From Escherichia coli (GTDB lineage Bacteria > Pseudomonadota > Gammaproteobacteria > Enterobacterales > Enterobacteriaceae): a stretch of DNA of 64,000 nucleotides. Under the pieces are notes generated by a model. That model made no database searches, had not been told where the DNA came from, and worked only from the letters and a program-made list of their open reading frames with translations. The number at the start of each line of letters is the position of its first letter. Within the stretch, counting starts at the first letter, position 1. This document shows positions 4,296 through 64,000 of this stretch, piece by piece. The stretch is taken from NCBI RefSeq assembly GCF_013315695.1, contig NZ_CP054353.1. One strand, given 5' to 3'. Made by a program: the position numbers and the translations under genes.

Positions 4296-4350
4296 TTGAT
4301 TTTATTAGTAACAAGTATTTTTTATATTTTAATAATATATTTAAAGCAGA

Positions 4351-4377
4351 TAATAAAAAACCCGCCTGAGCGGGTTT
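4351..4377 (-). terminator. Rho-independent terminator (hairpin aaacccgc-ctga-gcgggttt plus T-run on minus strand) downstream of cspB
   Basis: Perfect 8-bp stem read directly; the minus strand continues with TTTTTTTATT. Confidence 0.6.
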
Positions 4378-7970: not shown

Positions 7971-8222
7971 TTATTCTTCTGAAAAAGCAGAAAAGCCAGC
8001 TTTTATTCCGATCTCTTTCAATACCTGTAATGAAGTGACAAACTCACCGTCGCGCAAGATAAATCCGTCCGTCACTCGGGCATCCACAAAATTAATTAAC
8101 GCAGCCCCATTTTTTTGCAAACACACAATGCGGTAATGACTAACAATATTTCCATTTTCAACGCACACAGCATAGAGGCCATCTTCACAAAAAATTTTAC
8201 GCAGTTCTTCGATGTTCATCAT
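7971..8222 (-). CDS. rem: Hypothetical 83-aa prophage protein; possibly Rem
   Basis: 83-aa ORF located between ydfU and hokD; length and position match my recollection of rem; weak assignment. Confidence 0.4.
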   Translation of the reverse strand: MMNIEELRKIFCEDGLYAVCVENGNIVSHYRIVCLQKNGAALINFVDARVTDGFILRDGEFVTSLQVLKEIGIKAGFSAFSEE

Positions 8223-8340
8223 CAGAATCCTTCCGGATAATTAGCTCTCCCCTTTAAGGGACCATCCCTCTTATCCCTGCGCGCTACTTAAGTATTTTTG
8301 ATTCTATTCCGGCACCGTCCAGAACTTCAAATGCGTTGAA

Positions 8341-8370
8341 AATAAAAACAAAAACCCGCCGAAGCGGGTT
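8341..8370 (-). terminator. Rho-independent terminator of the relB-relE-hokD operon
   Basis: Hairpin aacccgc-cgaa-gcgggtt with a T-run on the minus strand, ~70 bp downstream of the hokD stop. Confidence 0.65.
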
Positions 8371-8438
8371 AAGTGCGGGTGCGTTGAGAATGCCTGCCAC
8401 ATCAGAGGTGGCGAGGGATTTCTCCCTCGCCGGGTCTC

Positions 8439-10429: not shown

Positions 10430-11900
10430 CAGAAACGCGACTTAAGAATCTACCCTATGAATGGATATGCACTCAACCGAATCGATCTTGGTTTCAATCT
10501 TTTTTATCGGGATCAGGCTTCTTTTTAGGTAACTTCGGGGGCTTAACTTGCTGATGACTTTGCGTTCGGCGCGTAAGCCAGGGATGGTCAGCTTTAGGTT
10601 TAACATAGTATTTTGAGCGTAAATCAATACGGGCATTATCCACTCGTTCATGGACACTCTTTTCATCATCCAGTGGTATAGGCTCCGGGCCATCAACATA
10701 CTTTTCCCAGCCCAGCGCTTTCCCGTCATACAGAACGTTAATTTCACCGTCAAAGTTCTCGCATACAGTAACAACCGAATGCCTAAGTCGATATCCCCGG
10801 CCCTCACTGCGTACCTGAAACGCACTGCTTTTGTACTGGAAAGTGAGATTTTTAGACAGAACGCGCTTCGCCTGTAGGCTGAAGATATAACCCAGTTCCT
10901 CTTCAGAATGGTGCACATCAAGATGAGCATTATCAGTAGTACGAGGCGACGTAGCGAACCGGTTGTTATAGGCTTCAATAAAGGTCGGCAACCATGCATT
11001 TGCTGTTTCAATATCACTGATATTCTGAAGCCGCATTTCTTTGACCAGCCTGTCCTGTAGTGTCTGATTGGCGCGCTCTACCCGCCCTTTTGCCTGCGGG
11101 CTGTTGGCATGGATTGGCTCGATGCCCAGTGTCTTTATCGCACGAGTGAACTGGGTCAGCTCACCTTCCCGCTCTGGGTTATTTACCCTGAATATACTGT
11201 GTCTATCAGAGTAGAGAGCGAGCGGTACGCCATGATCATTAAGGTAACCCCGGAGGGTTTCCATGTAAGCCCGGGTTGTTTCAGCAGGCACAAAACGCAA
11301 CGCCATCAACGCACTGGTGGCATCATCAATGAAAACGATCAGTGTACATCTGGGGCCTCGATTTTCAAACCAGTCATGAGGTGAGCCATCAATCTGGATC
11401 AGTTCACCGTAAGATGGTCGTCGCATGCGGCGTTGATATATACGGGCAATTTTACGACGGCGTTCACGCCATAACCCCTCTTCTATCATCCACTTTCTGA
11501 GAGTTTCAACGGATAAAGATAAACCGTGTATCTCGCGCAATTTTTCGCACGCAAACGTAGGTCCAAAATCAGCGTAACGGCCTTTGAGGAGTGAAATTAC
11601 TGTTGCTCTGAATTCAGTAGAAAAGGAATTATTAGGACGCTTTCCACGTCGGTGGGAAACCAGAGCAGAAGGCCCTTCATTTCTATACCGTTGCACCAGA
11701 CGTTTAACCTGCCGAATAGAAATGCCAATGCGTGCCGCAGCTTGTTCCTGAATAATCTGAAGTCGGTGGAGTTCCTTATGACTCATCGTAACAGTCTCTT
11801 TGATCATGAAAAATCCCCCAGAGAATTGTCTGGGGACATTTTAGAATGGTTCAAAGGGGACATTACAGCTTGGTGTTAACAATAGCCTGCTTCTCCGTGC
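10430..11900 (-). mobile_element. Probable insertion sequence carrying a single DDE (rve-type) transposase; boundaries approximate
   Basis: Single 437-aa transposase ORF flanked by non-coding DNA with GGGGACA-type repeats and a candidate imperfect terminal repeat (AGGCTATT... at ~10330 and ~11885); ends not resolved. Confidence 0.4.
10494..11807 (-). CDS. DDE transposase, integrase-core (rve) type with N-terminal HTH (IS481/ISNCY-like)
   Basis: 437-aa ORF with N-terminal HTH (AARIGISIRQVKRLVQRY) and core ...IDGSPHDWF...FIDDATS...YSDRHSIF...SPQAKGRVERANQTLQDRL... Confidence 0.6.
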   Translation of the reverse strand: MIKETVTMSHKELHRLQIIQEQAAARIGISIRQVKRLVQRYRNEGPSALVSHRRGKRPNNSFSTEFRATVISLLKGRYADFGPTFACEKLREIHGLSLSVETLRKWMIEEGLWRERRRKIARIYQRRMRRPSYGELIQIDGSPHDWFENRGPRCTLIVFIDDATSALMALRFVPAETTRAYMETLRGYLNDHGVPLALYSDRHSIFRVNNPEREGELTQFTRAIKTLGIEPIHANSPQAKGRVERANQTLQDRLVKEMRLQNISDIETANAWLPTFIEAYNNRFATSPRTTDNAHLDVHHSEEELGYIFSLQAKRVLSKNLTFQYKSSAFQVRSEGRGYRLRHSVVTVCENFDGEINVLYDGKALGWEKYVDGPEPIPLDDEKSVHERVDNARIDLRSKYYVKPKADHPWLTRRTQSHQQVKPPKLPKKKPDPDKKD

Positions 11901-12141
11901 CTTTCGGCACGTAAGAGGCTAACCTACATGTGTCTAGCATGAAATTGGCCTCAGATTAATGTTAAGCGTCTTGCAGGACGCGTAATGTTAACTGGGGCTT
12001 TTCTCTATCTGCCGTTGGTGTCCATGCCCGAGGCAGATAGCCTCAAGCACCCGCAGTCATTCTACTTAACTAAGATTTCCCCGCAAACCGTTTTTGTCCA
12101 GCACAGTAAATATCCAACTAAACCAATGGAGTTCGCTGTAT

Positions 12142-15757: not shown

Positions 15758-15971
15758 TGTTCAACCGCCCCGCCCGCTTCGTCTTACGATATTCATCATA
15801 AACTTTGGGATCATACTGAAGCTCCCCGCCAGATGCCTCCTGTAGACGCATCGCGCGACCTTCGGGAACTAAATCCCCTTTCCAGCTATAAAGCGAAGCC
15901 AAACGAATACCTGCTGCTTGTGCAAGTTTTGTTTTTGAACCGAAATACAAAAGAGCGTCAGTTTTAAGCAT
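15741..15971 (-). CDS. dicC: DicC, Cro-like regulator of dicB
   Basis: 76-aa ORF MLKTDALLYFGSKTKLAQAAGIRLASLYSWKGD... (HTH), divergent from dicA. Confidence 0.8.
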   Translation of the reverse strand: MLKTDALLYFGSKTKLAQAAGIRLASLYSWKGDLVPEGRAMRLQEASGGELQYDPKVYDEYRKTKRAGRLNNENHS

Positions 15972-15988
15972 TTAAAACACCTTTATTG

Positions 15989-16052
15989 TTAGTCATAACT
16001 AACAAGATAGATGTTAACAAAAACATAGTCAATACGATTTAGCATTAGCTAA
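15989..16052. promoter_or_regulatory. dicA-dicC intergenic operator region with palindromes TTAGTCATAACTAA and TTAGCATTAGCTAA
   Basis: Inverted repeats read at 15989-16002 and 16039-16052 between divergent HTH regulator genes. Confidence 0.55.
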
Positions 16053-16943: not shown

Positions 16944-17162
16944 ATGCAGAAACGAGAACCCGTCATCATCGCGCCAGACTATACCGATGATGAACTTTAT
17001 GAGTGGATGCGCCAGAAAATTAATGCAGCGCAGGATCTGAAATGGGCTAATGAAGCCAGGGCTAAGCAGGCTGAAAATCTGTTCTCTCTGGAGCAGGATA
17101 TCACCAGGCTGGAAAAAGCAGCGGCATTAAGCATTGCCAGAATGATTACATACCCGCGTTAA
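16944..17162 (+). CDS. ydfC: YdfC (72 aa)
   Basis: ORF MQKREPVIIAPDYTDDELYEWMRQKINAAQDLKWANEARAK... Confidence 0.75.
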   Translation: MQKREPVIIAPDYTDDELYEWMRQKINAAQDLKWANEARAKQAENLFSLEQDITRLEKAAALSIARMITYPR

Positions 17163-17502
17163 TAGCTAACCAACGAAGCTAAGGTTGGTAATTAAGGAGT
17201 TCTCCACGGGTGAGGTGGAGTGCGTGCGCCGGACACGGGTGAGCATCCGGCACTGACAGTTTACTGAAAGGATATTTCCATGAAAAGTCAGACCATAACG
17301 CGAAAGCGCACGGCGAGGTAGCTGGTTCATAGATAGCCTGTCGTTAAATTTTCGTCGACCGTGCGCTTCCGGTTGTGGCAACCCGCGAAATGGCGCGGCG
17401 GTAAGTATGGCGGGGTTATTCCTTCCCCGTTGAGGACACCGGGTTGTCAGGTTGACCATACGCTTAAGTGACAACCCCGCTGCAACGCCCTCTGTTATCA
17501 AT

Positions 17503-17557
17503 TTTCTGGTGACGTTTGGCGGTATCAGTTTTACTCCGTGACTGCTCTGCCGCCCTT
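17503..17557 (+). ncRNA. dicF: DicF small regulatory RNA (anti-ftsZ)
   Basis: Sequence TTTCTGGTGACGTTTGGCGGTATCAGTTTTACTCCGTGACTGCTCTGCCGCCC followed by TTTTT matches DicF as I remember it; directly upstream of dicB. Confidence 0.8.
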
Positions 17558-18162: not shown

Positions 18163-19326
18163 TTGTTCATCCTTAAATCTGTCATGAGGTTAAAACAAAT
18201 GAGTAAAGTCTTTATTTGCGCCGCTATTCCTGACGAACTGGCAACAAGGGAAGAAGGCGCTGTGGCTGTAGCCACAGCCATTGAAGCTGGCGACGAACGC
18301 CGTGCTCGAGCAAAATTTCACTGGCAATTCCTGGAACATTATCCGGCTGCTCAGGACTGCGCTTATAAATTTATTGTCTGCGAGGATAAACCTGGCATAC
18401 CCCGCCCTGCCCTCGATTCATGGGATGCTGAATATATGCAGGAAAACCGCTGGGATGAGGAGTCTGCTTCTTTTGTCCCGGTTGAGACTGAATCCGATCC
18501 GATGAACGTCACTTTTGACAAGCTGGCCCCTGAAGTACAGAACGCTGTCATGGTTAAGTTCGACACATGTGAAAACATCACCGTTGATATGGTTATTAGC
18601 GCACAGGAATTGTTGCAGGAAGACATGGCAACATTCGACGGACATATCGTTGAAGCGTTGATGAAAATGCCAGAAGTTAACGCCATGTATCCGGAGCTTA
18701 AGCTGCATGCCATCGGGTGGGTTAAGCATAAATGTAAGCCTGGTGCCAAATGGCCCGAAATTCAGGCAGAGATGCGCATCTGGAAAAAACGTCGCGAAGG
18801 TGAACGTAAGGAAACCGGAAAATACACGTCTGTTATTGATCTCGCCCGCGCCAGAACCAATCAACAGCACAGTGAAAATTCAACAGGAAAAATCAGCCCG
18901 GTCATTGCTGCCATTCATCGCGAATACAAGCAGACATGGAAAACACTGGATGACGAACTGGCCTACGCTCTCTGGCCTGGTGATGTGGATGCCGGAAACA
19001 TTGACGGCAGCATCCATCGCTGGGCAAAAAATGAAGTTATCGACAACGACCGCGAAGACTGGAAGCGTATCTCGGCATCAATGCGCAAACAGCCTGATGC
19101 CCTTCGCTACGACCGCCAAACTATTTTTGGCCTTGTCCGTGAGCGTCCGATCGACATTCACAAAGATCCCGTAGCACTGAACAAATATATCTGCGAATAC
19201 CTGACGACAAAGGGCGTGTTTGAGAATGAAGAAACAGACCTGGGCACTGTTGATGTTCTCCAGTCATCAGAAACACAAACTGATGCAGTGGAAACTGAGT
19301 ATTTCCAGACATCTGTTATCACTTAA
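18163..19326 (+). pseudogene. ydfE: ydfE-like prophage gene whose 3-prime end runs into IS2 (C-terminus replaced by IS-derived codons)
   Basis: ORF continues 27 bp past the IS2 boundary at 19300 before stopping; true start uncertain (candidates at 18199 or 18403). Confidence 0.55.
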
Positions 19327-20202
19327 CCCATTACAAGCCCGCTGCCGCAGATATTCCCGTGGCGAGCGATAACCCAGCGCACTATGCGGATGCCATTCGT
19401 TATAATGCTCGAACGCCTCTGCAAGGTTCTTTGCTGCCGTTAACCCGTCTGGTTTGGGCATGATACTGATGTAGTCACGCTTTATCGTTTTCACGAAGCT
19501 CTCTGCTATTCCGTTACTCTCCGGACTCCGCACCGCCGTGTTCTTCGGTTCAAGTCCCAACATCCGGGCGAACTGGCGTGTTTCATTAGCCCGGTAGCAT
19601 GAACCATTATCCGTCAGCCACTCCACTGGAGACGACGGAAGATCGTTGCCGAAGCGGCGTTCCACCGCTCCCAGCATGACGTCCTGTACTGTTTCACTGT
19701 TGAAGCCGCCGGTAGTGACCGCCCAGTGCAGTGCCTCACGATCACTGCAGTCCAGCGCGAACGTGACACGCAGTCTCTCTCCGTTATCACAGCAGAACTC
19801 GAACCCGTCAGAGCACCATCGCTGATTGCTTTCTTTCACGGCCACTCTGCCTGTATGTGCCCGTTTCGATGGCGGTACAGCAGGTTTTCGCTCAAGCAAC
19901 AGCGCATTCTGGCGCATGATCCGGTAAACACGTTTGGCATTGATCGCAGGCATACCATCAAGTTCTGCCTGTCTGCGAAGCAGCGCCCATACCCGACGAT
20001 AACCATACGTGGGCAGCTCTCCGATAACATGGTGTATACGGAGAAGCACATCCGTATCATCAGTGTGACGACTGCGGCGGCCATCCATCCAGTCATCGGT
20101 TCGTCTGAGAATGACGTGCAACTGCGCACGCGACACCCGGAGACAACGGCTGACTAAGCTTACTCCCCATCCCCGGGCAATAAGGGCGCGTGCGCTATCC
20201 AC
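19267..20202 (-). CDS. insD: IS2 transposase OrfB (InsD) with ~10-codon C-terminal extension into flanking DNA
   Basis: 311-aa ORF; body matches InsD through ...[11 protein letters not shown], then continues [10 protein letters not shown] because the normal stop lies in the missing IS2 terminus. Confidence 0.85.
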
Positions 20203-20616
20203 TTTTTTGCCCGTCCATATTCAACGGCTTCTTTGAGGAGTTCATTTTCCATCGTTTTCTTGCCGAGCAGGCGCTGGAGTTCTTTAATCTGCTTCATGGC
20301 GGCAGCAAGTTCAGAGGCAGGAACAACCTGTTCTCCGGCGGCGACAGCAGTAAGACTTCCTTCCTGGTATTGCTTACGCCAGAGAAATAACTGGCTGGCT
20401 GCTACACCATGTTGCCGGGCAACGAGGGAGACCGTCATCCCCGGTTCAAAGCTCTGCTGAACAATTGCGATCTTTTCCTGTGTGGTACGCCGTCTGCGTT
20501 TCTCCGGTCCTAAGACATCAATCATCTGCTCTCCAATGACTAGTCTAAAAACTAGTATTAAGACTATCACTTAAATAAGTGATACTGGTTGTCTGGAGAT
20601 TCAGGGGGCCAGTCTA
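19300..20616 (-). mobile_element. IS2 copy (1317 bp), missing ~14 bp of one terminus
   Basis: insC/insD ORF pair; one end GGTTGTCTGGAGATTCAGGGGGCCAGTCTA intact at 20587-20616; the other end matches IS2 only from TATTTCCAGACATCTG inward. Confidence 0.8.
20160..20525 (-). CDS. insC: IS2 OrfA (InsC)
   Basis: ORF 20160..20570 with internal start [41 protein letters not shown]... Confidence 0.85.
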
Positions 20617-21991
20617 TGAGGTATCTGATATCCCAAAAAATGAAACCGCGCCGGAAGCTGAACCATCTGTAGAGCGTGAGGGGCCGTTCTATTTCCTCTT
20701 CGCAGATAAGGACGGAGAAAAATGCGGTCGCGCAAACAAACTTTCTGGTCTGGATAAGGCACTGGCTGCTGGCGCCACTGAAATCACAAAAGAAGAATAT
20801 TTTGCCCGAAAAAATGGCACATACACGGGCTTACCGCAAAATGTAGATACCGCTGAAGATTCAGAACAACCAGAGCCGATAAAAGTTACCGCTGACGAAG
20901 TAAACAAAATTATGCAGGCAGCCAATATCAGCCAGCCTGACGCCGATAAGTTGCTTGCTGCATCACGTGGTGAATTTGTTGAAGGGATTAGTGACCCGAA
21001 TGATCCGAAATGGGTTAAGGGGATCCAGACCCGCGATTCTGTGAACCAGAACCAGCATGAATCGGAACGGAACTACCAAAAAGCGGAACAAAACAGCCCA
21101 AATGCGTTACAAAACGAGCCAGAAACGAAACAGCCTGAACCAGTGGCGCAACAGGAAGTGGAAAAAGTCTGCACCGCCTGCGGTCAGACCGGCGGCGGCA
21201 ACTGCCCTGATTGTGGCGCGGTGATGGGCGACGCAACATACCAGGAAACATTCGATGAAGAGTATCAGGTTGAAGTTCAGGAAGATGATCCGGAGGAAAT
21301 GGAAGGCGCTGAACATCCACACAAGGAGAACACTGGCGGCAATCAGCATCACGATAGCGATAATGAAACTGGCGAGACGGCAGATCGCTCAATTAAGGTG
21401 AACGGTCATCACGAAATCACATCCACCAGCAGGACGTGTGACCATCTAATGATCGACCTTGAAACCATGGGAAAAAATCCTGATGCCCCGATCATCTCAA
21501 TAGGTGCAATATTTTTCGATCCGCAAACCGGAGATATGGGACCGGAATTTAGTAAGACTATCGATCTGGAAACTGCTGGCGGAGTCATTGATCGGGACAC
21601 CATTAAATGGTGGCTTAAGCAATCACGCGAAGCGCAATCTGCCATTATGACCGATGAAATCCCGTTAGATGATGCACTGTTACAATTGCGGGAATTTATC
21701 GACGAAAACTCCGGTGAATTTTTTGTTCAGGTTTGGGGAAATGGAGCCAACTTCGACAACACGATTTTGCGCCGTTCATACGAACGGCAGGGGATCCCCT
21801 GCCCGTGGCGTTACTACAACGATCGCGATGTACGCACAATCGTTGAGCTGGGGAAAGCCATAGACTTCGATGCCAGAACGGCTATTCCATTCGAAGGTGA
21901 GCGCCATAATGCACTTGATGACGCCCGTTACCAGGCAAAATACGTTTCAGTTATCTGGCAAAAACTGATCCCGAGTCAGGCTGATTCTTAA
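20617..21991 (+). pseudogene. Prophage exonuclease-like gene, 5-prime truncated by IS2: zinc-ribbon motif plus C-terminal DEDDh 3-prime-5-prime exonuclease domain
   Basis: Reading frame is open from the IS2 edge with no start codon in host DNA; [16 protein letters not shown] motif; DEDDh motifs [27 protein letters not shown]. Confidence 0.5.
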
Positions 21992-28787: not shown

Positions 28788-31214
28788 ATGTCCAAAAATG
28801 AACAAATGGTGGGCATCAGCCGCAGAACACTCGTTAAATCTACCGCGATAGGTTCTCTGGCGCTGGCTGCAGGCGGTTTTTCTTTACCGTTCACCCTGCG
28901 CAGTGCAGCGGCAGCGGTACAACAGGCCAGCGAGAAAGTGGTCTGGGGTGCCTGTTCCGTCAACTGTGGTAGCCGCTGTGCACTTCGTCTGCATGTTAAA
29001 GATAATGAAGTGACCTGGGTGGAAACTGACAACACCGGCAACGACGAGTATGGCAATCATCAAGTACGTGCCTGTTTGCGCGGTCGCTCCATCCGTCGGC
29101 GTATTAATCATCCCGATCGCTTGAATTACCCAATGAAACGCGTGGGCAAACGCGGCGAAGGCAAATTCGAACGGATTAGCTGGGATGAAGCCCTGGATAC
29201 TATCGCCAGTAGCCTGAAAAAAACCGTCGAACAATATGGCAATGAGGCTGTATATATTCAGTACTCTTCAGGGATCGTTGGCGGCAATATGACCCGCTCT
29301 TCACCATCAGCCTCGGCGGTCAAACGCCTGATGAACTGCTACGGCGGTTCACTCAATCAGTATGGCTCCTACAGCACCGCGCAAATTTCCTGTGCCATGC
29401 CCTACACCTACGGCAGTAATGATGGCAACAGCACCACGGATATTGAAAACAGCAAGCTGGTCGTGATGTTTGGTAACAACCCGGCAGAAACCCGCATGAG
29501 CGGCGGTGGCATCACTTATCTTCTTGAAAAAGCGCGCGAGAAATCGAACGCAAAAATGATTGTTATCGATCCGCGATATACCGATACGGCTGCTGGTCGT
29601 GAAGACGAATGGCTACCTATTCGCCCGGGCACCGATGCCGCGCTGGTTGCGGGTATTGCCTGGGTATTGATTAACGAAAATCTCGTTGATCAACCTTTTC
29701 TCGATAAATACTGCGTCGGCTATGACGAAAAAACCTTACCCGCAGATGCACCAAAAAATGGTCACTATAAAGCCTATATTCTTGGTGAAGGTGATGATAA
29801 AACAGCGAAAACGCCGCAGTGGGCTTCGCAAATTACCGGTATCCCGGTGGACCGTATCATCAAGCTGGCGCGTGAAATTGGCACAGCAAAACCCGCTTAT
29901 ATCTGCCAGGGCTGGGGACCGCAACGCCAGGCAAACGGCGAGCTGACTGCACGCGCTATTGCGATGTTGCCTATTCTGACGGGCAATGTCGGCATCAGCG
30001 GCGGGAATAGTGGCGCGCGTGAATCGACCTATACCATTACCATAGAACGCCTGCCGGTGCTGGATAATCCGGTCAAAACGTCAATCTCCTGCTTCAGCTG
30101 GACAGATGCTATCGATCATGGCCCGCAAATGACGGCAATCCGCGACGGTGTCCGGGGCAAAGATAAACTGGATGTGCCCATTAAGTTCATCTGGAACTAC
30201 GCGGGAAATACCCTGGTTAATCAGCATTCTGACATCAACAAAACGCATGAAATTCTGCAGGACGAATCGAAATGCGAAATGATTGTGGTCATCGAAAACT
30301 TTATGACCTCATCGGCAAAATATGCCGACATTCTGCTGCCAGACCTGATGACCGTTGAGCAGGAAGATATTATTCCTAACGACTACGCCGGTAACATGGG
30401 ATATCTCATTTTCCTTCAGCCAGTCACCAGCGAAAAATTCGAACGCAAACCGATTTACTGGATCCTGAGTGAAGTCGCGAAACGTCTTGGACCTGACGTC
30501 TATCAAAAGTTCACTGAAGGTCGCACCCAGGAACAATGGTTACAACATCTGTACGCCAAAATGCTTGCCAAAGATCCGGCGTTACCGTCTTACGACGAAC
30601 TGAAAAAAATGGGTATCTATAAGCGTAAAGATCCCAATGGTCATTTTGTCGCCTACAAAGCATTTCGTGACGACCCCGAGGCAAATCCACTTAAAACGCC
30701 TTCCGGTAAGATTGAAATTTATTCCAGCAAGCTGGCGGAAATTGCCCGTACCTGGGAACTGGAAAAAGATGAAGTGATAAGCCCACTGCCGGTTTATGCC
30801 TCAACCTTTGAAGGCTGGGACTCCCCTGAACGTAGTACCTTCCCACTGCAACTGTTTGGTTTCCATTACAAATCCCGTACGCACTCGACCTACGGCAACA
30901 TTGATGTCCTGAAGGCAGCCTGCCGTCAGGAAGTGTGGATCAACCCTATAGATGCACAGAAACGTGGGATTGCCAACGGCGATATGGTGCGGGTGTTTAA
31001 CCATCGTGGCGAAGTTCGGCTACCAGCCAAAGTGACACCACGCATTCTCCCTGGAGTTAGTGCTATGGGCCAGGGAGCCTGGCACGAGGCCAATATGTCT
31101 GGCGATAAAATCGACCACGGCGGCTGTGTGAATACGCTAACCACTCTGCGCCCTTCACCACTGGCGAAGGGAAACCCGCAGCACACTAATCTGGTCGAGA
31201 TCGAAAAAATATAA
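28788..31214 (+). CDS. ynfE: Molybdopterin oxidoreductase catalytic subunit YnfE (DmsA paralog, Tat signal)
   Basis: 808-aa ORF; twin-arginine motif SRRTLVK; Fe-S cysteine cluster CSVNCGSRCALR. Confidence 0.9.
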   Translation: MSKNEQMVGISRRTLVKSTAIGSLALAAGGFSLPFTLRSAAAAVQQASEKVVWGACSVNCGSRCALRLHVKDNEVTWVETDNTGNDEYGNHQVRACLRGRSIRRRINHPDRLNYPMKRVGKRGEGKFERISWDEALDTIASSLKKTVEQYGNEAVYIQYSSGIVGGNMTRSSPSASAVKRLMNCYGGSLNQYGSYSTAQISCAMPYTYGSNDGNSTTDIENSKLVVMFGNNPAETRMSGGGITYLLEKAREKSNAKMIVIDPRYTDTAAGREDEWLPIRPGTDAALVAGIAWVLINENLVDQPFLDKYCVGYDEKTLPADAPKNGHYKAYILGEGDDKTAKTPQWASQITGIPVDRIIKLAREIGTAKPAYICQGWGPQRQANGELTARAIAMLPILTGNVGISGGNSGARESTYTITIERLPVLDNPVKTSISCFSWTDAIDHGPQMTAIRDGVRGKDKLDVPIKFIWNYAGNTLVNQHSDINKTHEILQDESKCEMIVVIENFMTSSAKYADILLPDLMTVEQEDIIPNDYAGNMGYLIFLQPVTSEKFERKPIYWILSEVAKRLGPDVYQKFTEGRTQEQWLQHLYAKMLAKDPALPSYDELKKMGIYKRKDPNGHFVAYKAFRDDPEANPLKTPSGKIEIYSSKLAEIARTWELEKDEVISPLPVYASTFEGWDSPERSTFPLQLFGFHYKSRTHSTYGNIDVLKAACRQEVWINPIDAQKRGIANGDMVRVFNHRGEVRLPAKVTPRILPGVSAMGQGAWHEANMSGDKIDHGGCVNTLTTLRPSPLAKGNPQHTNLVEIEKI

Positions 31215-31274
31215 CCCACTACGACCATAAATTTTGACATGACATTTTGTTTGAAAAGCAATAAGTGAGTAATG

Positions 31275-33698
31275 ATGAAAATCCATACCACAGAGGCGCT
31301 CATGAAGGCTGAAATCAGCCGTAGAAGTCTGATGAAAACCTCCGCACTTGGCAGTCTTGCGCTGGCAAGCAGTGCTTTCACTCTGCCATTTTCCCAAATG
31401 GTCCGAGCGGCAGAGACACCGGTAGAAGAGAAAGCGGTCTGGAGTTCCTGCACCGTTAACTGCGGGAGCCGCTGTCTGTTACGTTTGCATGTGAAAGATG
31501 ACACCGTGTACTGGGTGGAGTCTGATACGACAGGAGACGACGTTTACGGTAATCATCAGGTTCGGGCATGTTTACGCGGGCGCTCTATCCGCCGACGGAT
31601 GAATCATCCTGACAGGTTGAAATATCCCATGAAGCGCGTCGGCAAGCGCGGTGAAGGTAAATTTGAACGGATAAGTTGGGATGAAGCCCTGGATACCATC
31701 AGTGATAATCTTCGGCGGATCCTGAAAGATTACGGCAATGAGGCTGTACATGTCCTGTACGGAACAGGCGTAGATGGCGGAAACATCACCAACTCGAACG
31801 TCCCGTACCGTCTGATGAACTCTTGCGGTGGTTTTCTCAGTCGCTATGGCAGCTACAGTACCGCACAGATCAGTGCCGCGATGAGTTATATGTTCGGTGC
31901 CAATGATGGCAACAGCCCGGATGATATCGCCAATACGAAACTGGTCGTTATGTTCGGAAATAACCCGGCAGAAACCCGGATGAGCGGCGGTGGTGTCACT
32001 TACTACGTCGAGCAAGCCCGCGAACGTTCAAACGCACGCATGATCGTCATTGATCCACGTTATAACGACACTGCTGCCGGGCGTGAAGATGAATGGCTGC
32101 CCATTCGCCCTGGCACCGATGGCGCACTGGCCTGTGCGATTGCCTGGGTACTGATTACTGAAAACATGGTCGATCAGCCATTTCTCGACAAATATTGTGT
32201 TGGTTACGATGAAAAAACGCTGCCCGCCAACGCACCACGTAACGCGCATTATAAAGCCTATATTCTGGGCGAAGGGCCTGACGGCATAGCTAAAACGCCG
32301 GAATGGGCAGCAAAAATCACCAGCATCCCGGCAGAAAAAATTATCCAGTTGGCACGAGAGATCGGTTCAGCAAAACCGGCTTATATTTGTCAGGGTTGGG
32401 GGCCACAACGACATTCCAACGGCGAGCAAACATCCCGCGCTATTGCCATGCTTTCCGTTCTCACCGGTAACGTCGGCATAAACGGCGGCAACTCAGGTGT
32501 ACGCGAAGGTAGCTGGGATCTGGGAGTAGAATGGTTCCCGATGCTCGAGAATCCTGTTAAAACGCAGATTTCCGTCTTTACATGGACAGATGCCATCGAC
32601 CATGGTACGGAAATGACCGCGACCCGTGATGGTGTTCGTGGAAAAGAAAAACTGGATGTCCCCATCAAGTTTTTATGGTGCTACGCCAGTAACACATTGA
32701 TCAATCAACATGGCGACATCAATCACACCCATGAGGTGCTTCAGGATGACAGCAAGTGCGAGATGATTGTTGGCATTGACCACTTCATGACTGCCTCGGC
32801 TAAGTATTGCGATATCCTGTTGCCCGACCTGATGCCAACAGAGCAAGAAGACCTTATCTCTCACGAATCTGCCGGGAATATGGGCTATGTGATCCTCGCC
32901 CAACCCGCAACCTCAGCAAAATTTGAACGCAAACCCATCTACTGGATTCTGAGTGAAGTTGCCAAACGCTTAGGACCAGACGTTTATCAAACCTTTACTG
33001 AAGGTCGCAGTCAGCATGAATGGATCAAATATCTCCATGCGAAAACGAAGGAACGTAACCCTGAGATGCCCGACTACGAGGAGATGAAAACGACCGGGAT
33101 CTTTAAGAAAAAATGCCCGGAAGAACACTACGTCGCTTTCCGCGCATTCCGTGAAGATCCACAGGCAAACCCGTTGAAAACACCTTCGGGGAAAATCGAA
33201 ATTTATTCTGAACGACTGGCGACGATTGCGGATACCTGGGAATTGAAAAAAGATGAAATTATTCATCCCCTTCCTGCATATACCCCAGGTTTTGATGGCT
33301 GGGACGATCCCCTGCGGAAAACCTATCCACTGCAGCTAACGGGCTTCCACTACAAAGCACGTACCCACTCCAGCTACGGCAATATTGATGTGTTACAGCA
33401 GGCCTGCCCACAAGAGGTGTGGATCAACCCCATTGATGCTCAGGCACGCGGTATCCGTCATGGCGATACCGTGCGGGTATTTAACACTAATGGAGAAATG
33501 CTGATTGCCGCAAAAGTGACTCCGCGTATTCTGCCTGGCGTTACCGCCATCGGGCAAGGTGCGTGGCTTAAAGCGGATATGTTTGGTGACCGGGTCGATC
33601 ACGGCGGCAGTATCAATATTCTGACCTCTCACCGCCCTTCACCGCTGGCAAAGGGAAACCCGTCGCACAGCAATCTAGTCCAGATCGAAAAGGTTTAA
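31275..33698 (+). CDS. ynfF: Molybdopterin oxidoreductase catalytic subunit YnfF (DmsA paralog, Tat signal)
   Basis: 807/808-aa ORF, close paralog of the preceding gene (SRRSLMK Tat motif, CTVNCGSRCLLR). Confidence 0.9.
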   Translation: MKIHTTEALMKAEISRRSLMKTSALGSLALASSAFTLPFSQMVRAAETPVEEKAVWSSCTVNCGSRCLLRLHVKDDTVYWVESDTTGDDVYGNHQVRACLRGRSIRRRMNHPDRLKYPMKRVGKRGEGKFERISWDEALDTISDNLRRILKDYGNEAVHVLYGTGVDGGNITNSNVPYRLMNSCGGFLSRYGSYSTAQISAAMSYMFGANDGNSPDDIANTKLVVMFGNNPAETRMSGGGVTYYVEQARERSNARMIVIDPRYNDTAAGREDEWLPIRPGTDGALACAIAWVLITENMVDQPFLDKYCVGYDEKTLPANAPRNAHYKAYILGEGPDGIAKTPEWAAKITSIPAEKIIQLAREIGSAKPAYICQGWGPQRHSNGEQTSRAIAMLSVLTGNVGINGGNSGVREGSWDLGVEWFPMLENPVKTQISVFTWTDAIDHGTEMTATRDGVRGKEKLDVPIKFLWCYASNTLINQHGDINHTHEVLQDDSKCEMIVGIDHFMTASAKYCDILLPDLMPTEQEDLISHESAGNMGYVILAQPATSAKFERKPIYWILSEVAKRLGPDVYQTFTEGRSQHEWIKYLHAKTKERNPEMPDYEEMKTTGIFKKKCPEEHYVAFRAFREDPQANPLKTPSGKIEIYSERLATIADTWELKKDEIIHPLPAYTPGFDGWDDPLRKTYPLQLTGFHYKARTHSSYGNIDVLQQACPQEVWINPIDAQARGIRHGDTVRVFNTNGEMLIAAKVTPRILPGVTAIGQGAWLKADMFGDRVDHGGSINILTSHRPSPLAKGNPSHSNLVQIEKV

Positions 33699-42094: not shown

Positions 42095-42403
42095 ATGAAA
42101 AAAGTATTAGCTCTGGTTGTTGCCGCTGCTATGGGTCTGTCTTCTGCCGCCTTTGCTGCAGAAACTGTGACCACACCTGCTCCGACTGCGACGACCACCA
42201 AAGCAGCGCCGGCGAAAACTACACATCATAAAAAACAGCATAAAGCAGCACCTGCCCAGAAAGCGCAGGCGGCTAAAAAGCATCATAAAAATGCGAAAGC
42301 TGAACAGAAAGCTCCTGAACAAAAAGCGCAGGCAGCGAAGAAACACGCCAAGAAACACAGCCATCAGCAACCGGCAAAACCTGCTGCACAACCCGCAGCG
42401 TAA
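42095..42403 (+). CDS. asr: Acid shock protein Asr
   Basis: Start [21 protein letters not shown] (signal peptide) followed by a low-complexity Lys/Ala/His/Gln-rich region. Confidence 0.85.
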
Positions 42404-54945: not shown

Positions 54946-57308
<2,363 letters not shown>

Positions 57309-57444
57309 GGCCTGCTCCTCACCTGATTAATTTTTTCTTTCTGTTTTGCTTTCGTTAAGCAACTTTTAGCTCACTTATTATTTACTATTTGATAACAAAT
57401 GTTTGGTCTTTCGTGCCATGTAAAAAAACCGCCCCGAAGGGCGG

Positions 57445-58870
57445 TAATGCCAGTCAGTTAAGCAACTGACTGGCTCTTTTTCGGGGCTGTGGGGTATTTC
57501 CAGGGCCTCTCCTTTACCACTCTCGGGAAGGCCCTTTCCCTTCTTGTCGGTAATTTCACAAGTTGTCCCATACTTGCAAGATCGCGCATCAGCTCCGGTA
57601 TACGTCCCGGTGAAGCGCCCTGCAATGTCATCAGCATTCTCATCACCATTCCGCATGATTCTGAGAAACTCAGTTGATTCGGCCAGTAACCTTTCAGATG
57701 TTCCGCCATTTTAATCATCTGATATCTCACCAGATTATAAGCCAGTAAGACACCCCACAGCTCTTGCTCCACAAGCTCCGGTTTTTTACTTCTCAGCGTC
57801 AGCCTGCTCAGTTGCATCGTCTGTTTTATCTCCCTGTATCCCAGTTCGATTTCCCAGCGATGACTGTACAGATCCGCCATTTCTCCTCCGGGGAAGCGCA
57901 TGGCGTCCGTCATCGACGTCAGCAGATGGCAGACTTTTCCTTTGCGCGTCACGGTCAGCAGGCGGGCTGTCACTTCATTTCCCAGTCCCGGCCACTTTTT
58001 TCGTGCCTGCGGGCTGGTTTTCAGCTTCACCAGATGATCGCCTTTACCCAGTTTTCTGATCTCTTCATATTGCGCTCCCTTTCTGAGAGGTATCATCCAG
58101 TGGCGGTGTTCTCCCGCCAGGCTCCAGGCATTTAACAGTCCCAGTGAGTAATAACCTTTATCCATTAACGTCAGAGTGTTATCGCCGGTTTGTTCTATAA
58201 GTTGCTCAGCAAGCTCATTTTCGCTGTTCTTCATCGTGCCGAAGGCTGCAGCCGTCAGCAGATGGCTGGTCAGTTCCATCTGGCAGACCATTTTGACCTG
58301 CGGGTAGAGCGCCGGGTTCCCGGCATGTGTCTGGCGGGGGAAGGCTGCATCGTTCTCTGGTGTATCCGGTGTGCGCCAGAACACACCATCGATGGCCAGC
58401 AGGGTCAGGCCGCACCAGTGCGGATGCGGCGTGGCGTTATGCCAGAGCTGCGCTGTTTTCGTGAACACGCGGCGGACAGCCTCACTTCCCAGGCGCTGGC
58501 GGGCCTGAATAACGGCACTGGGGGCAACGAAGGGGCGATTGCCCGGCAGCATGATGTCCAGGCGATTCACAATCTGGTGAAGAGGTTCTTTACGCTCAAG
58601 CGCCATGCCAACAATACACCAGACCATCATTTCGAGGGGAAGACGGCGCTTGCGTAGCGTTACAGTACCTGATTCGGCAAGGCAACGAGAGATGAGTTCG
58701 GGGTCGAGGTAATCCCCCAGAGAAGTCAGTGGGTTACGCAGAGAATCGTAACGGGATACCAGATCAAGAGCCTGTCCAATGTGCATAAAAAAATCCGGAA
58801 ACAAGTGAGCGTTTCCGGATTCTTACACAGCCACTGGATCGGTCAACTGATCCTTAACTGATCGGCATTA
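57445..58870 (-). mobile_element. IS4 (1426 bp) with intact terminal inverted repeats and no flanking direct repeat
   Basis: Ends TAATGCCAGTCAGTTAAG at 57445 and CCTTAACTGATCGGCATTA at 58852-58870; 442-aa IS4 transposase inside; flanking 12-mers differ. Confidence 0.9.
57458..58786 (-). CDS. insG: IS4 transposase (InsG)
   Basis: ORF 57458..58804 with start [31 protein letters not shown]... Confidence 0.9.
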
Positions 58871-59335
58871 CTCCCTGGGGACAGTAAATAAAAGCAAAGT
58901 ACCTCTGGGTTTAAGCGCAACCTATGGACAAACAGGAAACAAGGTTGCAGCCGGAACCGTCCAGTCAGTCATTGGTGTCACTTTTATCTATGAATAATTG
59001 TGATTTTGACCTTAGTCTATGCGCTCCATTCGCGAAAATTGCGCGGATAATTATTTTGTGAAGGCTATTATCCTACACCTGTAAGAAAATCCGCGCACAA
59101 TTAACGCCAGAGTCTTATTTTTTATATTGAAAAACATGTTAATTTAAACACTATGAGAGATGATGCTTAACTTATCGTATTTATACCATTCTATTATTTA
59201 ACGATAATAGATTAAAAATAGAAAGAGAGTAGTCCCCTACTCTTATATATCCATATTGACGATAATCCCTTTGTATATACTGTGCATCATCGCTATTTCA
59301 AATCCTAATAATTCATTTCCACACAGGATAAGTAG

Positions 59336-61615
59336 ATGAAGAAAAAAATTGAATCCTACCAGGGGGCTGCCGGAGGTTGGGGTGCTGTTAAATCCGTAGC
59401 GAATGCAGTACGTAAGCAGATGGATATACGCCAGGATGTTATTGCCATGTTTGACATGAATAAGCCAGAGGGCTTTGACTGTCCGGGTTGTGCATGGCCA
59501 GATCCTAAGCACAGTGCGTCATTCGACATTTGTGAAAACGGCGCAAAAGCAATCGCCTGGGAAGTCACGGATAAGCAGGTAAACGCCTCTTTCTTTGCTG
59601 AGAATACGGTTCAATCATTACTTACCTGGGGAGACCACGAGCTTGAGGCTGCGGGGCGTCTCACCCAGCCTTTGAAATATGATGCCGTCAGCGACTGTTA
59701 CAAGCCATTAAGCTGGCAACAAGCTTTCGACGAAATTGGCGAACGCCTTCAAAGCTATAGTGATCCCAATCAGGTTGAATTCTATACTTCAGGCCGCACT
59801 TCCAATGAAGCTGCCTTTCTTTATCAGCTTTTTGCCCGTGAATACGGGAGCAATAACTTCCCCGACTGCTCCAACATGTGCCATGAACCGACCAGTGTGG
59901 GTTTGGCAGCGAGTATCGGTGTAGGTAAAGGGACCGTGTTGCTGGAAGACTTTGAGAAATGCGATTTAGTCATTTGCATTGGGCATAACCCTGGTACAAA
60001 CCACCCTCGCATGTTGACTTCGTTGCGCGCTTTAGTGAAACGGGGAGCGAAAATGATCGCCATCAATCCTCTACAGGAACGTGGCCTGGAGCGATTTACC
60101 GCACCGCAAAACCCGTTTGAAATGCTGACGAACTCTGAGACTCAGTTGGCCAGTGCCTACTACAACGTGCGCATTGGTGGTGATATGGCGTTGCTCAAGG
60201 GGATGATGCGCCTGTTAATTGAGCGCGATGATGCTGCAAGCGCCGCAGGTCGGCCCTCATTGCTGGATGACGAATTTATTCAAACGCATACCGTCGGCTT
60301 TGACGAGCTACGCCGTGATGTTCTCAATTCCGAGTGGAAAGATATCGAGCGTATTTCTGGACTAAGTCAGACTCAAATCGCCGAACTGGCTGATGCATAT
60401 GCCGCTGCCGAACGCACCATTATCTGTTACGGGATGGGGATCACTCAGCACGAACATGGTACCCAGAATGTACAGCAACTGGTCAATCTGCTGTTGATGA
60501 AAGGTAACATTGGCAAGCCTGGTGCGGGTATCTGCCCACTACGAGGTCACTCTAATGTACAGGGCGACCGAACCGTCGGTATCACCGAGAAACCGTCTGC
60601 AGAGTTTCTGGATCGCCTGGGTGAGCGCTATGGCTTCACCCCACCTCATTCACCTGGACATGCTGCAATCGCCAGCATGCAAGCTATATGTACGGGGCAA
60701 GCTCGAGCATTGATCTGCATGGGGGGCAACTTTGCGCTGGCAATGCCAGATCGGGAAGCGAGCGCTGTACCGTTAACGCAATTAGATCTGGCGGTACACG
60801 TAGCCACTAAGCTTAACCGCTCTCATCTGCTGACCGCACGGCATAGCTATATTCTGCCGGTTCTGGGACGTAGCGAGATTGACATGCAAAAAAGCGGTGC
60901 GCAGGCGGTAACCGTTGAGGATTCAATGTCGATGATTCATGCCTCGCGTGGCGTGTTAAAACCCGCCGGTGTAATGCTGAAATCAGAGTGTGCAGTGGTC
61001 GCAGGTATCGCGCAGGCGGCACTACCCCAGAGCGTGGTAGCCTGGGAGTATCTGGTGGAAGATTATGATCGCATTCGCAATGACATTGAAGCTGTGCTGC
61101 CAGAGTTCGCCGACTATAACCAGCGCATCCGACATCCTGGAGGTTTTCACCTGATAAACGCAGCTGCTGAAAGGCGCTGGAGGACGTCGTCAGGTAAGGC
61201 TAATTTCATTACCAGTAAAGGGCTGTTAGAAGATCCCTCTTCAGCGTTTAACAGTAAGCTAGTCATGGCGACAGTACGCAGTCACGATCAGTACAACACG
61301 ACGATTTATGGTATGGATGATCGCTATCGAGGGGTATTCGGTCAACGAGATGTGGTCTTTATGAGTGCTAAACAAGCTAAAATTTGCCGTGTAAAAAACG
61401 GCGAAAGAGTTAATCTTATTGCGCTTACGCCAGACGGTAAGCGAAGCTCACGCCGCATGGATAGATTAAAAGTGGTCATTTACCCTATGGCTGACCGCTC
61501 ACTGGTGACCTATTTTCCAGAATCGAATCACATGCTAACACTTGATAACCACGATCCATTAAGTGGCATTCCTGGCTATAAAAGTATTCCGGTTGAATTA
61601 GAACCATCAAATTAA
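59336..61615 (+). CDS. ydeP: Molybdopterin-dependent oxidoreductase YdeP (acid-resistance, formate dehydrogenase-like)
   Basis: 759-aa [28 protein letters not shown]... Confidence 0.9.
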
Positions 61616-61862
61616 TGCCTCTTCTCATTTCTTCTGCTGTCATCCGCACAGCAGAAGAATTCCTCATTGACTATTATCGCGCAATTTGCTCACATGGATT
61701 AAATTAAACTACATACTATAAGATATAAACTTCTGCCTACAGATGTAAGAAACTCCGCTCAGTACTGAAGCGCCAGTCCTATTTCCTCTATTCTCCAGCC
61801 TGTTATATTAAGCATACTGATTAACGATGCTTAACGTCATTCGTTTAATAAACACATTTGAA

Positions 61863-62060
61863 ATGCATGCGACCATAGTGAAAAATAAAATCACGCAAAG
61901 AGACAACTATAAAGGGATCATGTCTGTAATTGTGGTTGTCTTATTACTGACCCTTACATTGATAGCCATTTTTTCGGCAATTGATCAGCTGGGTATTTCA
62001 GAAATGGGTCGCATTGCAAGGGATCTTACACATTTCATTATCAATAGTTTGCAAGACTGA
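61863..62060 (+). CDS. safA: SafA small membrane connector protein
   Basis: Internal start MHATIVKNKITQRDNYKGIMSVIVVVLLLTLTLIAIFSAIDQLGISEMGRIARDL... in ORF 61827..62060. Confidence 0.7.
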   Translation: MHATIVKNKITQRDNYKGIMSVIVVVLLLTLTLIAIFSAIDQLGISEMGRIARDLTHFIINSLQD

Positions 62061-62134
62061 AAATAAACAGCAAATTATAAATATGAAATGTTAAAAAAGT
62101 ATCGATAAAAACTTTATTGTTTTAAGGAGATAAA

Positions 62135-62896
62135 ATGTCGCTCGTTTGTTCTGTTATATTTATTCATCATGCCTTCAACGCTAACATTTTAGATAAAGAT
62201 TACGCCTTCTCTGACGGCGAGATCCTGATGGTAGATAACGCTGTTCGTACGCATTTTGAACCTTATGAGCGGCATTTCAAAGAAATCGGATTTAATGAAA
62301 ACACCATTAAAAAATATCTACAATGCACTAACATCCAGACAGTGACGGTGCCTGTTCCTGCGAAGTTTTTACGTGCTTCAAATGTACCGACGGGATTGCT
62401 TAATGAAATGATTGCTTATCTCAACTCGGAAGAACGCAATCATCATAACTTTTCAGAACTTTTGCTTTTTTCTTGCCTGTCTATTTTTGCCACATGCAAA
62501 GGTTTCATTACACTATTAACTAACGGTGTGCTATCCGTTTCCGGGAAAGTGAGAAATATTGTCAACATGAAGCTGGCGCACCCATGGAAGCTGAAAGATA
62601 TTTGTGACTGCCTGTACATCAGTGAAAGCCTGTTGAAGAAAAAACTTAAGCAAGAGCAAACGACATTCTCACAGATTCTTTTAGATGCCAGAATGCAGCA
62701 CGCAAAAAATTTGATACGCGTAGAAGGTTCAGTCAATAAAATTGCCGAACAATGTGGTTATGCCAGCACATCTTATTTTATTTATGCGTTCCGCAAACAT
62801 TTCGGCAACAGTCCGAAGAGAGTTTCTAAGGAGTACCGTTGTCAAAGGCACACCGGTATGAACACGGACAACACGATGAGTGCTTTAGCTATTTGA
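62135..62896 (+). CDS. ydeO: AraC-family acid-resistance regulator YdeO
   Basis: 253-aa ORF with C-terminal AraC HTH (ISESLLKKKLKQEQTTFSQ...YFIYAFRKHFGNSP). Confidence 0.85.
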   Translation: MSLVCSVIFIHHAFNANILDKDYAFSDGEILMVDNAVRTHFEPYERHFKEIGFNENTIKKYLQCTNIQTVTVPVPAKFLRASNVPTGLLNEMIAYLNSEERNHHNFSELLLFSCLSIFATCKGFITLLTNGVLSVSGKVRNIVNMKLAHPWKLKDICDCLYISESLLKKKLKQEQTTFSQILLDARMQHAKNLIRVEGSVNKIAEQCGYASTSYFIYAFRKHFGNSPKRVSKEYRCQRHTGMNTDNTMSALAI

Positions 62897-63298
62897 TTAT
62901 TTGCTAACGAGTAGTCAACCACGCACGCTACGTAAAAATTAAAATGGGGCAGCCATTCCCTGCCCCGCGTTGTTTTTAGGCAATATATTTATTGAAATAA
63001 ATAAGTGACATCCATCACATATTTATGCACTTGCATAACCTGTTGCATAATTATTTATGATCTCAATTAGGTATTTTGTCAGTAAAATACAATAATTTAT
63101 TAAATATCAATAGATTAGTTGTTTATCGGCGAGAAATTACTTAGTAGAACAGAAAGTAATGTCAACGCTTTATGGACTGTTATTTCCCTTTTTTTAGCTA
63201 AATCTGCTATCTCTTTATGTGACTCACTTCACTTACATCCACTTATTTCTCTTCGTAAAATTACTTTGGAATTAAGTACAATAAGAAGAGGAACATTT

Positions 63299-64000
63299 AT
63301 GAAGTCTGCATTAAAGAAAAGTGTCGTAAGTACCTCGATATCTTTGATACTGGCATCTGGTATGGCTGCATTTGCTGCTCATGCGGCAGATGATGTAAAG
63401 CTGAAAGCAACCAAAACAAACGTTGCTTTCTCAGACTTTACGCCGACTGAATACAGTACCAAAGGAAAGCCAAATATTATCGTACTGACCATGGATGATC
63501 TTGGTTATGGACAACTTCCTTTTGATAAGGGATCTTTTGACCCAAAAACAATGGAAAATCGTGAAGTTGTCGATACCTACAAAATAGGGATAGATAAAGC
63601 CATTGAAGCTGCGCAAAAATCAACGCCGACGCTCCTTTCATTAATGGATGAAGGCGTACGTTTTACTAACGGCTATGTGGCGCACGGTGTTTCCGGCCCC
63701 TCCCGCGCCGCAATAATGACCGGTCGAGCGCCCGCCCGCTTTGGTGTCTATTCCAATACCGATGCTCAGGATGGTATTCCGCTAACAGAAACTTTCTTGC
63801 CTGAATTATTCCAGAATCATGGTTATTACACTGCAGCAGTAGGTAAATGGCACTTGTCAAAAATCAGTAATGTGCCGGTACCGGAAGATAAACAAACGCG
63901 TGACTATCATGACAACTTCACCACATTTTCTGCGGAAGAATGGCAACCTCAAAACCGTGGCTTTGATTACTTTATGGGATTCCACGCTGCAGGAACGGCA
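63299..64000 (+). CDS. ydeN: Sulfatase family protein YdeN (5-prime part; continues beyond window end)
   Basis: Manual translation from ATG at 63299: MKSALKKSVVSTSISLILASGMAAFAAHAADD... with sulfatase motif region ...HGVSGPSRAAIMTGR...; open to the window edge. Confidence 0.8.
   Translation, partial: MKSALKKSVVSTSISLILASGMAAFAAHAADDVKLKATKTNVAFSDFTPTEYSTKGKPNIIVLTMDDLGYGQLPFDKGSFDPKTMENREVVDTYKIGIDKAIEAAQKSTPTLLSLMDEGVRFTNGYVAHGVSGPSRAAIMTGRAPARFGVYSNTDAQDGIPLTETFLPELFQNHGYYTAAVGKWHLSKISNVPVPEDKQTRDYHDNFTTFSAEEWQPQNRGFDYFMGFHAAGTA

Follow-up and report, generated by a model that had tools for sequence, protein, structure and literature searches.

Genes and features at the junction

We analyzed a 64,000-nucleotide stretch of Escherichia coli DNA (contig NZ_CP054353.1; hereafter, the window) in which the acid-resistance genes ydeP, safA, ydeO, and ydeN are found close to tus and fumC, with a complete copy of the insertion sequence (IS) IS4 between the two groups of genes (Table 1). 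The acid-resistance block (58871-64000) is collinear with K-12 MG1655 across all 5130 bp, with 97.6% identity. An initial annotation of the window had recognized the K-12 gene content and order in ydeP-safA-ydeO-ydeN, and our comparison bears this out: the intergenic spacings are those of K-12 (window/K-12: 247/247 for ydeP-safA, 74/74 for safA-ydeO, and 402/401 for ydeO-ydeN), and both the family profile matches and the comparison with K-12 show that the genes are intact. The annotation had also described the block as reversed relative to tus and fumC. The relative reversal is real: ydeP and fumC are both on the minus strand in K-12 and are divergent across IS4 in the window. The acid-resistance block is not the piece that flipped, however; its neighbors in the genome of strain MSB1_4I, described below, show that the terminus side was flipped instead. 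Overall, 58871-64000 is very probably an ordinary ydeP-safA-ydeO-ydeN locus in its native place, bordering a terminus inversion of about 130 kb that was mediated by IS4. The block adjoins tus and fumC because it lies just outside one endpoint of this inversion.

The element at the junction has the length of IS4 (1426 bp) and its imperfect 18-bp terminal inverted repeats (TAATGCCAGTCAGTTAAG at the left end and CTTAACTGATCGGCATTA at the right end, whose reverse complement is TAATGCCGATCAGTTAAG). Its transposase, on the minus strand, extends over 57458-58804 as called, or over 57458-58786 if it begins at the ATG. The protein matches NF033592 (IS4 family) with 304 bits, as against a cut-off of 115, and RefSeq names it “IS4-like element IS4 family transposase.” The transposase-proximal end of IS4 faces ydeP, and the transposase reads away from ydeP. 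IS4 is present in a median of one place per genome across complete E. coli genomes; in the lineage of MSB1_4I and a second strain, AF3, there are about 17–18 nearly identical copies.

Some details of the element and its borders are worth recording. Between 58786 and 58826 there is a hairpin with an 11-bp stem (58792-58821), followed on the minus strand by U7 and then by the ATG of the transposase (58786). This terminator-like hairpin lies between a promoter-like site (58846 to 58819) and the ATG and may limit transposase expression or read-in. RefSeq draws a “fimbrial protein” fragment at 58857-58997 (15858-15998 of locus L001), which extends 14 bp into IS4; the true remnant of ydeQ begins at 58871. 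To the left of IS4 there is another hairpin, which we considered as a terminator for fumC and rejected; the orientation of the genes makes it the fumA terminator, upstream of fumC. Finally, the IS4 transposase is co-directional with fumC, and IS4 separates fumC from fumA read-through.

Target duplications and the probable IS4-by-IS4 inversion

The IS4 copy in the window is not flanked by a matching target duplication. Instead, CCCCGAAGGGCGG borders it towards fumC and CTCCCTGGGGAC borders it towards ydeP. Unrearranged copies of IS4 at these two sites do have matching duplications, of 12 bp in ydeQ (in AF3 and SW070919) and of 13 bp in the fumA terminator (in AF3), which is within the range of 11–13 bp for this element. 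We compared a 9-kb query that spans fumC-IS4-ydeP against 5426 complete E. coli genomes. The span was found whole in just one of them, MSB1_4I (NZ_LR898874.1), with 100% identity; the other E. coli genomes match the query only piecewise.

AF3, a closely related blood isolate (NZ_OZ547117.1), has the K-12 gene order and two IS4 copies (L003 and L007) that are inverted relative to each other and lie about 129 kb apart. The ydeQ copy is bounded at both ends by CTCCCTGGGGAC, and the copy between fumC and fumA, which lies 136 bp upstream of fumC, is likewise bounded at both ends by CCCCGAAGGGCGG. The second IS4 of MSB1_4I has the 5' part of ydeQ on one side and fumA on the other, and its flanks are CTCCCTGGGGAC (left) and CCCCGAAGGGCGG (right). 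Furthermore, when the four 200-bp flanks of the rearranged state are compared with their counterparts in AF3, all of them are identical. In MSB1_4I, therefore, the two junctions are reciprocal, their flanks are exchanged, and no sequence has been lost; the window shows just one of these junctions. A reciprocal swap of this kind is the hallmark of homologous recombination between two IS copies in inverted orientation, and the window's IS4 carries half of each duplication because it is a recombinant copy. The length between the IS4 copies is 130,626 bp in the inverted state and 129,309 bp in AF3.

Both outer flanks (gadBC-pqqL-yddBA-ydeMN and fumA-manA) retain the K-12 orientation. The ydeP block itself is in the K-12 orientation in MSB1_4I and has its K-12 neighbors ydeM, yddA, yddB, pqqL, and gadBC. 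Therefore, the terminus segment flipped and the acid-resistance block stayed put. A simple deletion between the two sites was also considered and was rejected on two grounds: the flanks are reversed relative to each other, and the parental copies are inverted. The flip took the 5' part of ydeQ about 130 kb away; annotators should treat ydeQ as a split pseudogene, with halves that are about 130 kb apart in MSB1_4I.

We propose the following course of events. One IS4 would have entered ydeQ at 127 bp from its end and duplicated the 12 bp CTCCCTGGGGAC; another IS4, in the opposite orientation, would have entered the fumA terminator, at 136 bp upstream of fumC, and duplicated the 13 bp CCCCGAAGGGCGG. 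By homologous recombination, the two copies would then have flipped the interval that runs from the 5' part of ydeQ through dif, terC, and a Qin-like prophage to terB-tus-fumC. The products would be the fumC-IS4-ydeQ3'-ydeP junction seen in the window and a reciprocal ydeQ5'-IS4-fumA junction.

Each of the two parental insertions is uncommon on its own among the 5426 genomes. The IS4-ydeQ junction is present in five genomes and the fumC-IS4 junction (57309-57444 in the window; 4151-5576 in L007) in 15, and only AF3 and MSB1_4I have both; the fumA-terminator insertion occurs alone in 13 other genomes. The genomes with the fumC-IS4 junction belong to diverse lineages, and some of them have just one or two copies of IS4. 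As for the insertion in ydeQ, SW070919 (1725-3150 of L009) and AF3 (8001-9426 of L003) share the insertion site of IS4 to the nucleotide, along with its orientation and its 12-bp duplication (CTCCCTGGGGAC). SW070919 has an unrelated allelic background, with K-12-like upstream alleles, and its IS4 differs at 4 nucleotides. This shared site suggests either recurrent, target-specific insertion or transfer by recombination.

The window is from a distinct close relative of MSB1_4I. It lacks the IS1 that MSB1_4I has in or next to asr (acid shock protein), and there are also scattered single-nucleotide polymorphisms (SNPs) and clustered substitutions in the prophage. The order of genes differs as well: the window runs from the Qin-like prophage to exo5'-IS2-exo3' and then to rspB...tus-fumC, which is the ancestral order and the same as in AF3 (by BLAST), and MSB1_4I instead has exo5'-IS2-usher3' and usher5'-IS2-exo3'. 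Because the flanks of IS2 are swapped like those of IS4, a second, nested inversion of about 88 kb must have occurred in MSB1_4I. In this event, the IS2 in the exonuclease gene recombined with an IS2 in a ydeT-like usher gene, which restored the native orientation of dif and terC. Three states can therefore be told apart: AF3 is collinear, the window's genome has the IS4 inversion, and MSB1_4I has the IS4 inversion and the nested IS2 inversion. None of the complete genomes has the whole of the window; for the prophage and IS2 part, AF3 is the closest of them (99.6%). A pattern search for dif found none in the 64-kb window, although dif was expected there from MSB1_4I.

A few side observations concern this comparison. 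The empty IS1 site is at about 42147-42155 of the window, where BLAST segments overlap by 9 bp. The IS2 in the prophage exonuclease gene is at about 19303-20616 of the window (also L005, ~20137-21452; L006, ~30150-31467; L003, ~3960-5285), and its left inverted repeat is missing 14 bp at the start. What we take to be the end sequences of IS2 had no match at this copy, whose left end is 14 bp short. The substitutions relative to MSB1_4I are clustered at 7978-8427, 17083-17280, 18703-19032, and 20724-21389, all within the prophage, and look like gene conversion between prophage paralogues rather than point mutation.

Table 1. Coordinates of the features in the window
Feature	Position	Strand	Evidence or remarks
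terB, AATAAGGATGTTGTAACTAAAGT	54946-54968	+	In the tus promoter; 1 match by pattern search vs 0 expected; sequence read directly
tus, terminus-site-binding protein	54979-55908	+	RefSeq annotation of the identical stretch of MSB1_4I
fumC	55905-57308	-	RefSeq annotation of MSB1_4I and open reading frames
fumC native upstream region, 136 bp	57309-57444		Adjoins IS4
Copy of the 13-bp target duplication CCCCGAAGGGCGG of the fumA-terminator IS4 insertion	57432-57444		
IS4, 1426 bp, complete	57445-58870	-	Recombinant copy, inversion endpoint
3' remnant of ydeQ, 127 bp (pseudogene fragment)	58871-58997	+	Last 41 codons and stop; without a start codon
Copy of the 12-bp target duplication CTCCCTGGGGAC of the ydeQ IS4 insertion	58871-58882		
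ydeQ-ydeP intergenic region, 338 bp, native and complete	58998-59335	+	Alignment and composition
EvgA-box-like inverted repeat ATCCTACACCTGTAAGAA, upstream of ydeP	59070-59087	+	Pattern scan, 1 mismatch
Candidate ydeP promoter region	59101-59153	+	Promoter-like hexamers (59101-59128) and published 5' end of the leader
ydeP, 759 amino acids, intact	59336-61615	+	NF007406, 1828 bits; 753/759 residues as in K-12
Second EvgA-box-like repeat TGCCTACAGATGTAAGAA, upstream of safA-ydeO	61734-61751	+	Pattern scan, 1 mismatch
safA, 65 amino acids, connector from EvgS/EvgA to PhoQ/PhoP	61863-62060	+	RefSeq annotation and comparison with K-12
ydeO, 253 amino acids, AraC-family acid-response regulator	62135-62896	+	NF007407, 605 bits
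ydeN (sulfatase), first 234 codons	63299-64000	+	Ends at the window edge; not biologically truncated
cspA-type thermoregulator leader	1749-2134	-	Rfam; Qin-like prophage
cspA-type thermoregulator leader	4643-5035	-	Rfam; Qin-like prophage
sok antitoxin RNA of a hok/sok locus	11881-12052	-	Rfam; Qin-like prophage
DicF small RNA	17504-17555	+	Rfam; Qin-like prophage

The RNA matches from our Rfam scan of the window are confined to the prophage, with no match within 57000-64000.

The ydeP upstream region and rival readings of the junction

According to the initial annotation, a 465-bp AT-rich region upstream of ydeP begins directly at the end of IS4. Exactly 465 bp separate the end of IS4 from the ATG of ydeP, and the region is indeed AT-rich (35.7% GC, versus 47.8% for the window). 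However, just the last 338 bp (32.2% GC) are intergenic; the first 127 bp (44.9% GC) are the remnant of the ydeQ coding sequence. We aligned this upstream region from the window, K-12, the IS-free strain TCM3e1, and AF3. The native sequence is unbroken from the ydeP ATG to the IS4 end and is collinear with all three of the others. The ydeQ-ydeP intergenic region is 338 bp in the window and 333 bp in K-12, with one 5-bp insertion/deletion and about 12 SNPs between them. All of these intergenic differences from K-12 are common to AF3. TCM3e1 also has the 5-bp insertion/deletion and matches the window's intergenic sequence except at one position. Since these differences are present in a strain that has no IS here, they are natural alleles. 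The initial annotation had raised a possible loss of distal regulatory sequence. IS4 lies inside the ydeQ coding sequence, and the entire native intergenic region and 127 bp of ydeQ are kept. This is in essence the finding that the annotation itself named as speaking against its suggestion (a full native upstream region, with the neighboring gene just displaced), except that ydeQ was split by IS4.

The recognition repeat of EvgA, which Masuda & Church reportedly described in 2003, is said to be the 18-bp inverted repeat TTCYTACA-N2-TGTARGAA. With at most one mismatch allowed, this pattern has two matches in the 64 kb, versus 0 in 100 shuffles, and both are upstream of known EvgA targets (ydeP and safA). 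The repeat upstream of ydeP begins 200 bp into the native sequence, and 248 bp separate its end from the ATG. The ydeP leader used for in-vitro transcription by Gorelik et al. (PMC11210196), with the primer ATGAGAGATGATGC..., maps to 59153 onward. The EvgA-box-like repeat and all of the promoter-like sites are at least 200 bp inside the native DNA, and there are more promoter-like hexamers downstream of 59101-59128. We also noted that position 59071, within the ydeP repeat, is a T in the window and a G in K-12 (ATCCTACA against AGCCTACA). The T, a natural allele that TCM3e1 shares, is one step nearer to the consensus given above.

Could the proximity of IS4 still change the expression of ydeP, through an outward or hybrid promoter or through the loss of distal regulatory or silencing DNA? 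We consider this unlikely. The transposase-proximal end of IS4, which faces ydeP, corresponds to the end that bears the outward promoter pOUT in IS10, a relative of IS4, but in the window both the transposase and the only promoter-like site in this end (58846 to 58819, minus strand, inward) read away from ydeP. Several IS4-family elements (ISAba1, IS1999, and ISPa12) have complete outward promoters, and the review that lists them documents none for IS4 itself (PMC9330008). We found no sigma-70-like match on the outward (plus) strand, whether at 9/12 or at 8/12, in 58600-58930 (the last 270 bp of IS4 and the junction), which argues against the IS-borne outward promoter that the initial annotation had suggested. 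Any outward transcript would also run into two hairpins: a stable one in IS4 (58792-58821) and a terminator-like one after ydeQ (59028-59048). IS4 is close, ending 465 bp before the ATG of ydeP and about 200 bp before its EvgA-box-like site, and it has replaced AT-rich fimbrial DNA that was formerly upstream of ydeP, but the complete native intergenic region and the ydeQ remnant still separate the two. Furthermore, the inversion is younger than the IS4-ydeQ junction. This junction is found, unrearranged, in AF3 and in the unrelated background of SW070919, so the inversion changed nothing within about 1.9 kb upstream of ydeP.

Two other explanations would dispense with recombination between existing IS4 copies. 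If the junction were an assembly artefact, then identical IS4 copies would have been mis-joined and the true genome would be collinear with K-12, as AF3 is. The 17–18 nearly identical copies in the lineage would provide the opportunity, and the junction was found in just one of the 5426 complete genomes. However, the window and MSB1_4I share the identical junction and yet differ by SNPs, an IS1, and the IS2 inversion; that two distinct genomes share it argues against mis-assembly. The MSB1_4I chromosome is closed and has the exact reciprocal junction, with perfectly swapped duplications as real recombination would give, and long reads easily bridge a repeat of 1.4 kb. We therefore view an artefact as very improbable. 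Intramolecular transposition of IS4, which can in general yield inversions that are bounded by inverted IS copies, is harder still to reconcile with the data and can be nearly dismissed: AF3 already has both copies at the exact sites, each with its matching 12- or 13-bp duplication, the rearranged copies hold half of each duplication as expected from recombination between existing copies, and the fumA-terminator insertion is found by itself in other genomes.

Several points do weigh against our reading of the locus. The window's genome presumably carries the reciprocal junction, outside of the window, but that junction is known from MSB1_4I alone. The junction crosses a 1.4-kb repeat that has 17–18 copies, which leaves a small probability of a mis-join. 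On the regulatory side, consensus scans may miss weak or non-sigma-70 outward transcription from IS4, and, as mentioned above, other elements of the family have outward promoters. The replacement of the AT-rich ydeQRST fimbrial DNA by IS4 could alter the spreading of H-NS into the ydeP promoter. Also, a pH-responsive ydeP'-'lacZ fusion had about 500 nucleotides upstream of the promoter, whereas about 280 bp of native DNA is kept upstream of the start that was used in that paper.

On balance, we still favor an ordinary acid-resistance locus beside the endpoint of an inversion. EvgA-dependent, acid-induced transcription of ydeP has been shown for K-12 (PMC4283999, PMC11210196). We infer from the DNA that regulation of ydeP by EvgA is unchanged in the window because all of the known cis elements are kept, IS4 transcription is directed away from ydeP, and the insertion of IS4 is older than the inversion. 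Similarly, acid resistance is probably unaffected, with the EvgA-controlled promoters of ydeP and safA-ydeO and the genes themselves untouched, and so the odd neighborhood should not be read as regulatory rewiring. The initial annotation was right about the structure, but its regulatory suggestion is not supported, and its overall interpretation is thus partly supported.

The replication terminus and comparison with known systems

The consequence of the inversion that is likely to be relevant is not for acid resistance but for the polarity and position relative to dif of terB (and, in the single-inversion state, of terC). The inverted interval contains terB and tus and, in the full genome, dif and terC as well. 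The terB site of the window shares the strand of the ydeP block and is oriented to stop forks that come from the rst side and head for ydeP; its polarity relative to ydeP is opposite to that in K-12. In the MSB1_4I record, terB is at 2,546,039 (inverted), dif is at 2,583,938-2,583,965 (native), and terC is at about 2,600,997 (native). Thus, dif lies between opposed barriers, 38 kb from the inverted terB and 17 kb from the native terC, in a trap of about 55 kb. This trap is far tighter than the terA-terC interval of K-12. In the single-inversion state, terB and terC would both be flipped onto the terA side of dif, and the next barrier to clockwise forks would be far away. Both inversions include dif, so neither the orientation of genes with respect to replication nor the replichore polarity around dif is altered. 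Inversions that include dif are a class that is known to be tolerated.

It is conceivable, though we think it rather unlikely, that the nested IS2 inversion was selected as a compensatory change that puts a nearby barrier back on either side of dif. If true, this would bear on the debate as to whether the Tus/ter trap and the position of dif matter for fitness. According to Goodall et al. 2021 (PMC8347550), E. coli strains show high conservation of the fork trap, and isolates with terB on the far side of dif are therefore ready-made material for studying fork fusion, trap geometry, and fitness. The modest value of this case is that it is a natural, base-resolved IS4-by-IS4 flip of the dif/terC/terB-tus core, with a sister genome that adds a nested IS2 inversion.

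Exceptions to the conserved trap have been described (PMC8347550): terminus inversions in EDL933 and SMS-3-5, a swap of terB/tus and terE in IAI39, and Shigella genomes with dif between a flipped terC and terB. As in those fork-trap rearrangements, the inversions here include dif and flip ter sites but leave a working trap, terB moves with tus, and dif stays inside the innermost trap. Unlike those cases, the endpoints here are IS4 copies that are defined to the base (and IS2 copies for the nested inversion), and terB moves to the terA side of dif, along with terC in the single-inversion state. The arrangement in MSB1_4I, with inverted terB, dif, and native terC, is not found among those described in PMC8347550.

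The acid-resistance block closely resembles the K-12 EvgA locus (Masuda & Church 2002/2003; PMC4283999; PMC11210196), with the same genes, order, and spacings, 97.6% DNA identity, and EvgA-box-like inverted repeats of 18 bp ahead of ydeP and of safA. It differs in that ydeQ is truncated by IS4 and the ydeP box has one different base (59071). The junction also resembles the activation of genes by ISAba1, IS1999, ISPa12, or the pOUT of IS10, in that an IS4-family element is near a stress-resistance gene and its transposase-proximal end faces that gene. Unlike those cases, our scan of IS4 found no outward promoter-like sequence, and 465 bp of native DNA, including ydeP's own promoter, lies in between.

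Further parallels are large E. coli inversions by homologous recombination of inverted IS copies, as observed in long-term evolution lines (PMC4173774) and in mutation-accumulation lines (PMC5009759). These share with the window's rearrangement an inverted pair of IS copies, reciprocal junctions, swapped duplications, and a size on the order of 100 kb. In contrast to those lines, the inversion here arose in a natural clinical or commensal lineage, and it involves IS4, which is usually single- or low-copy in E. coli but has about 17–18 copies here. The inverted interval also differs in that it holds dif, terC, and terB/tus. The rearrangement in the window belongs with these known IS-mediated inversions and with the terminus cases of PMC8347550, and the junction beside ydeP is an ordinary IS-mediated endpoint.

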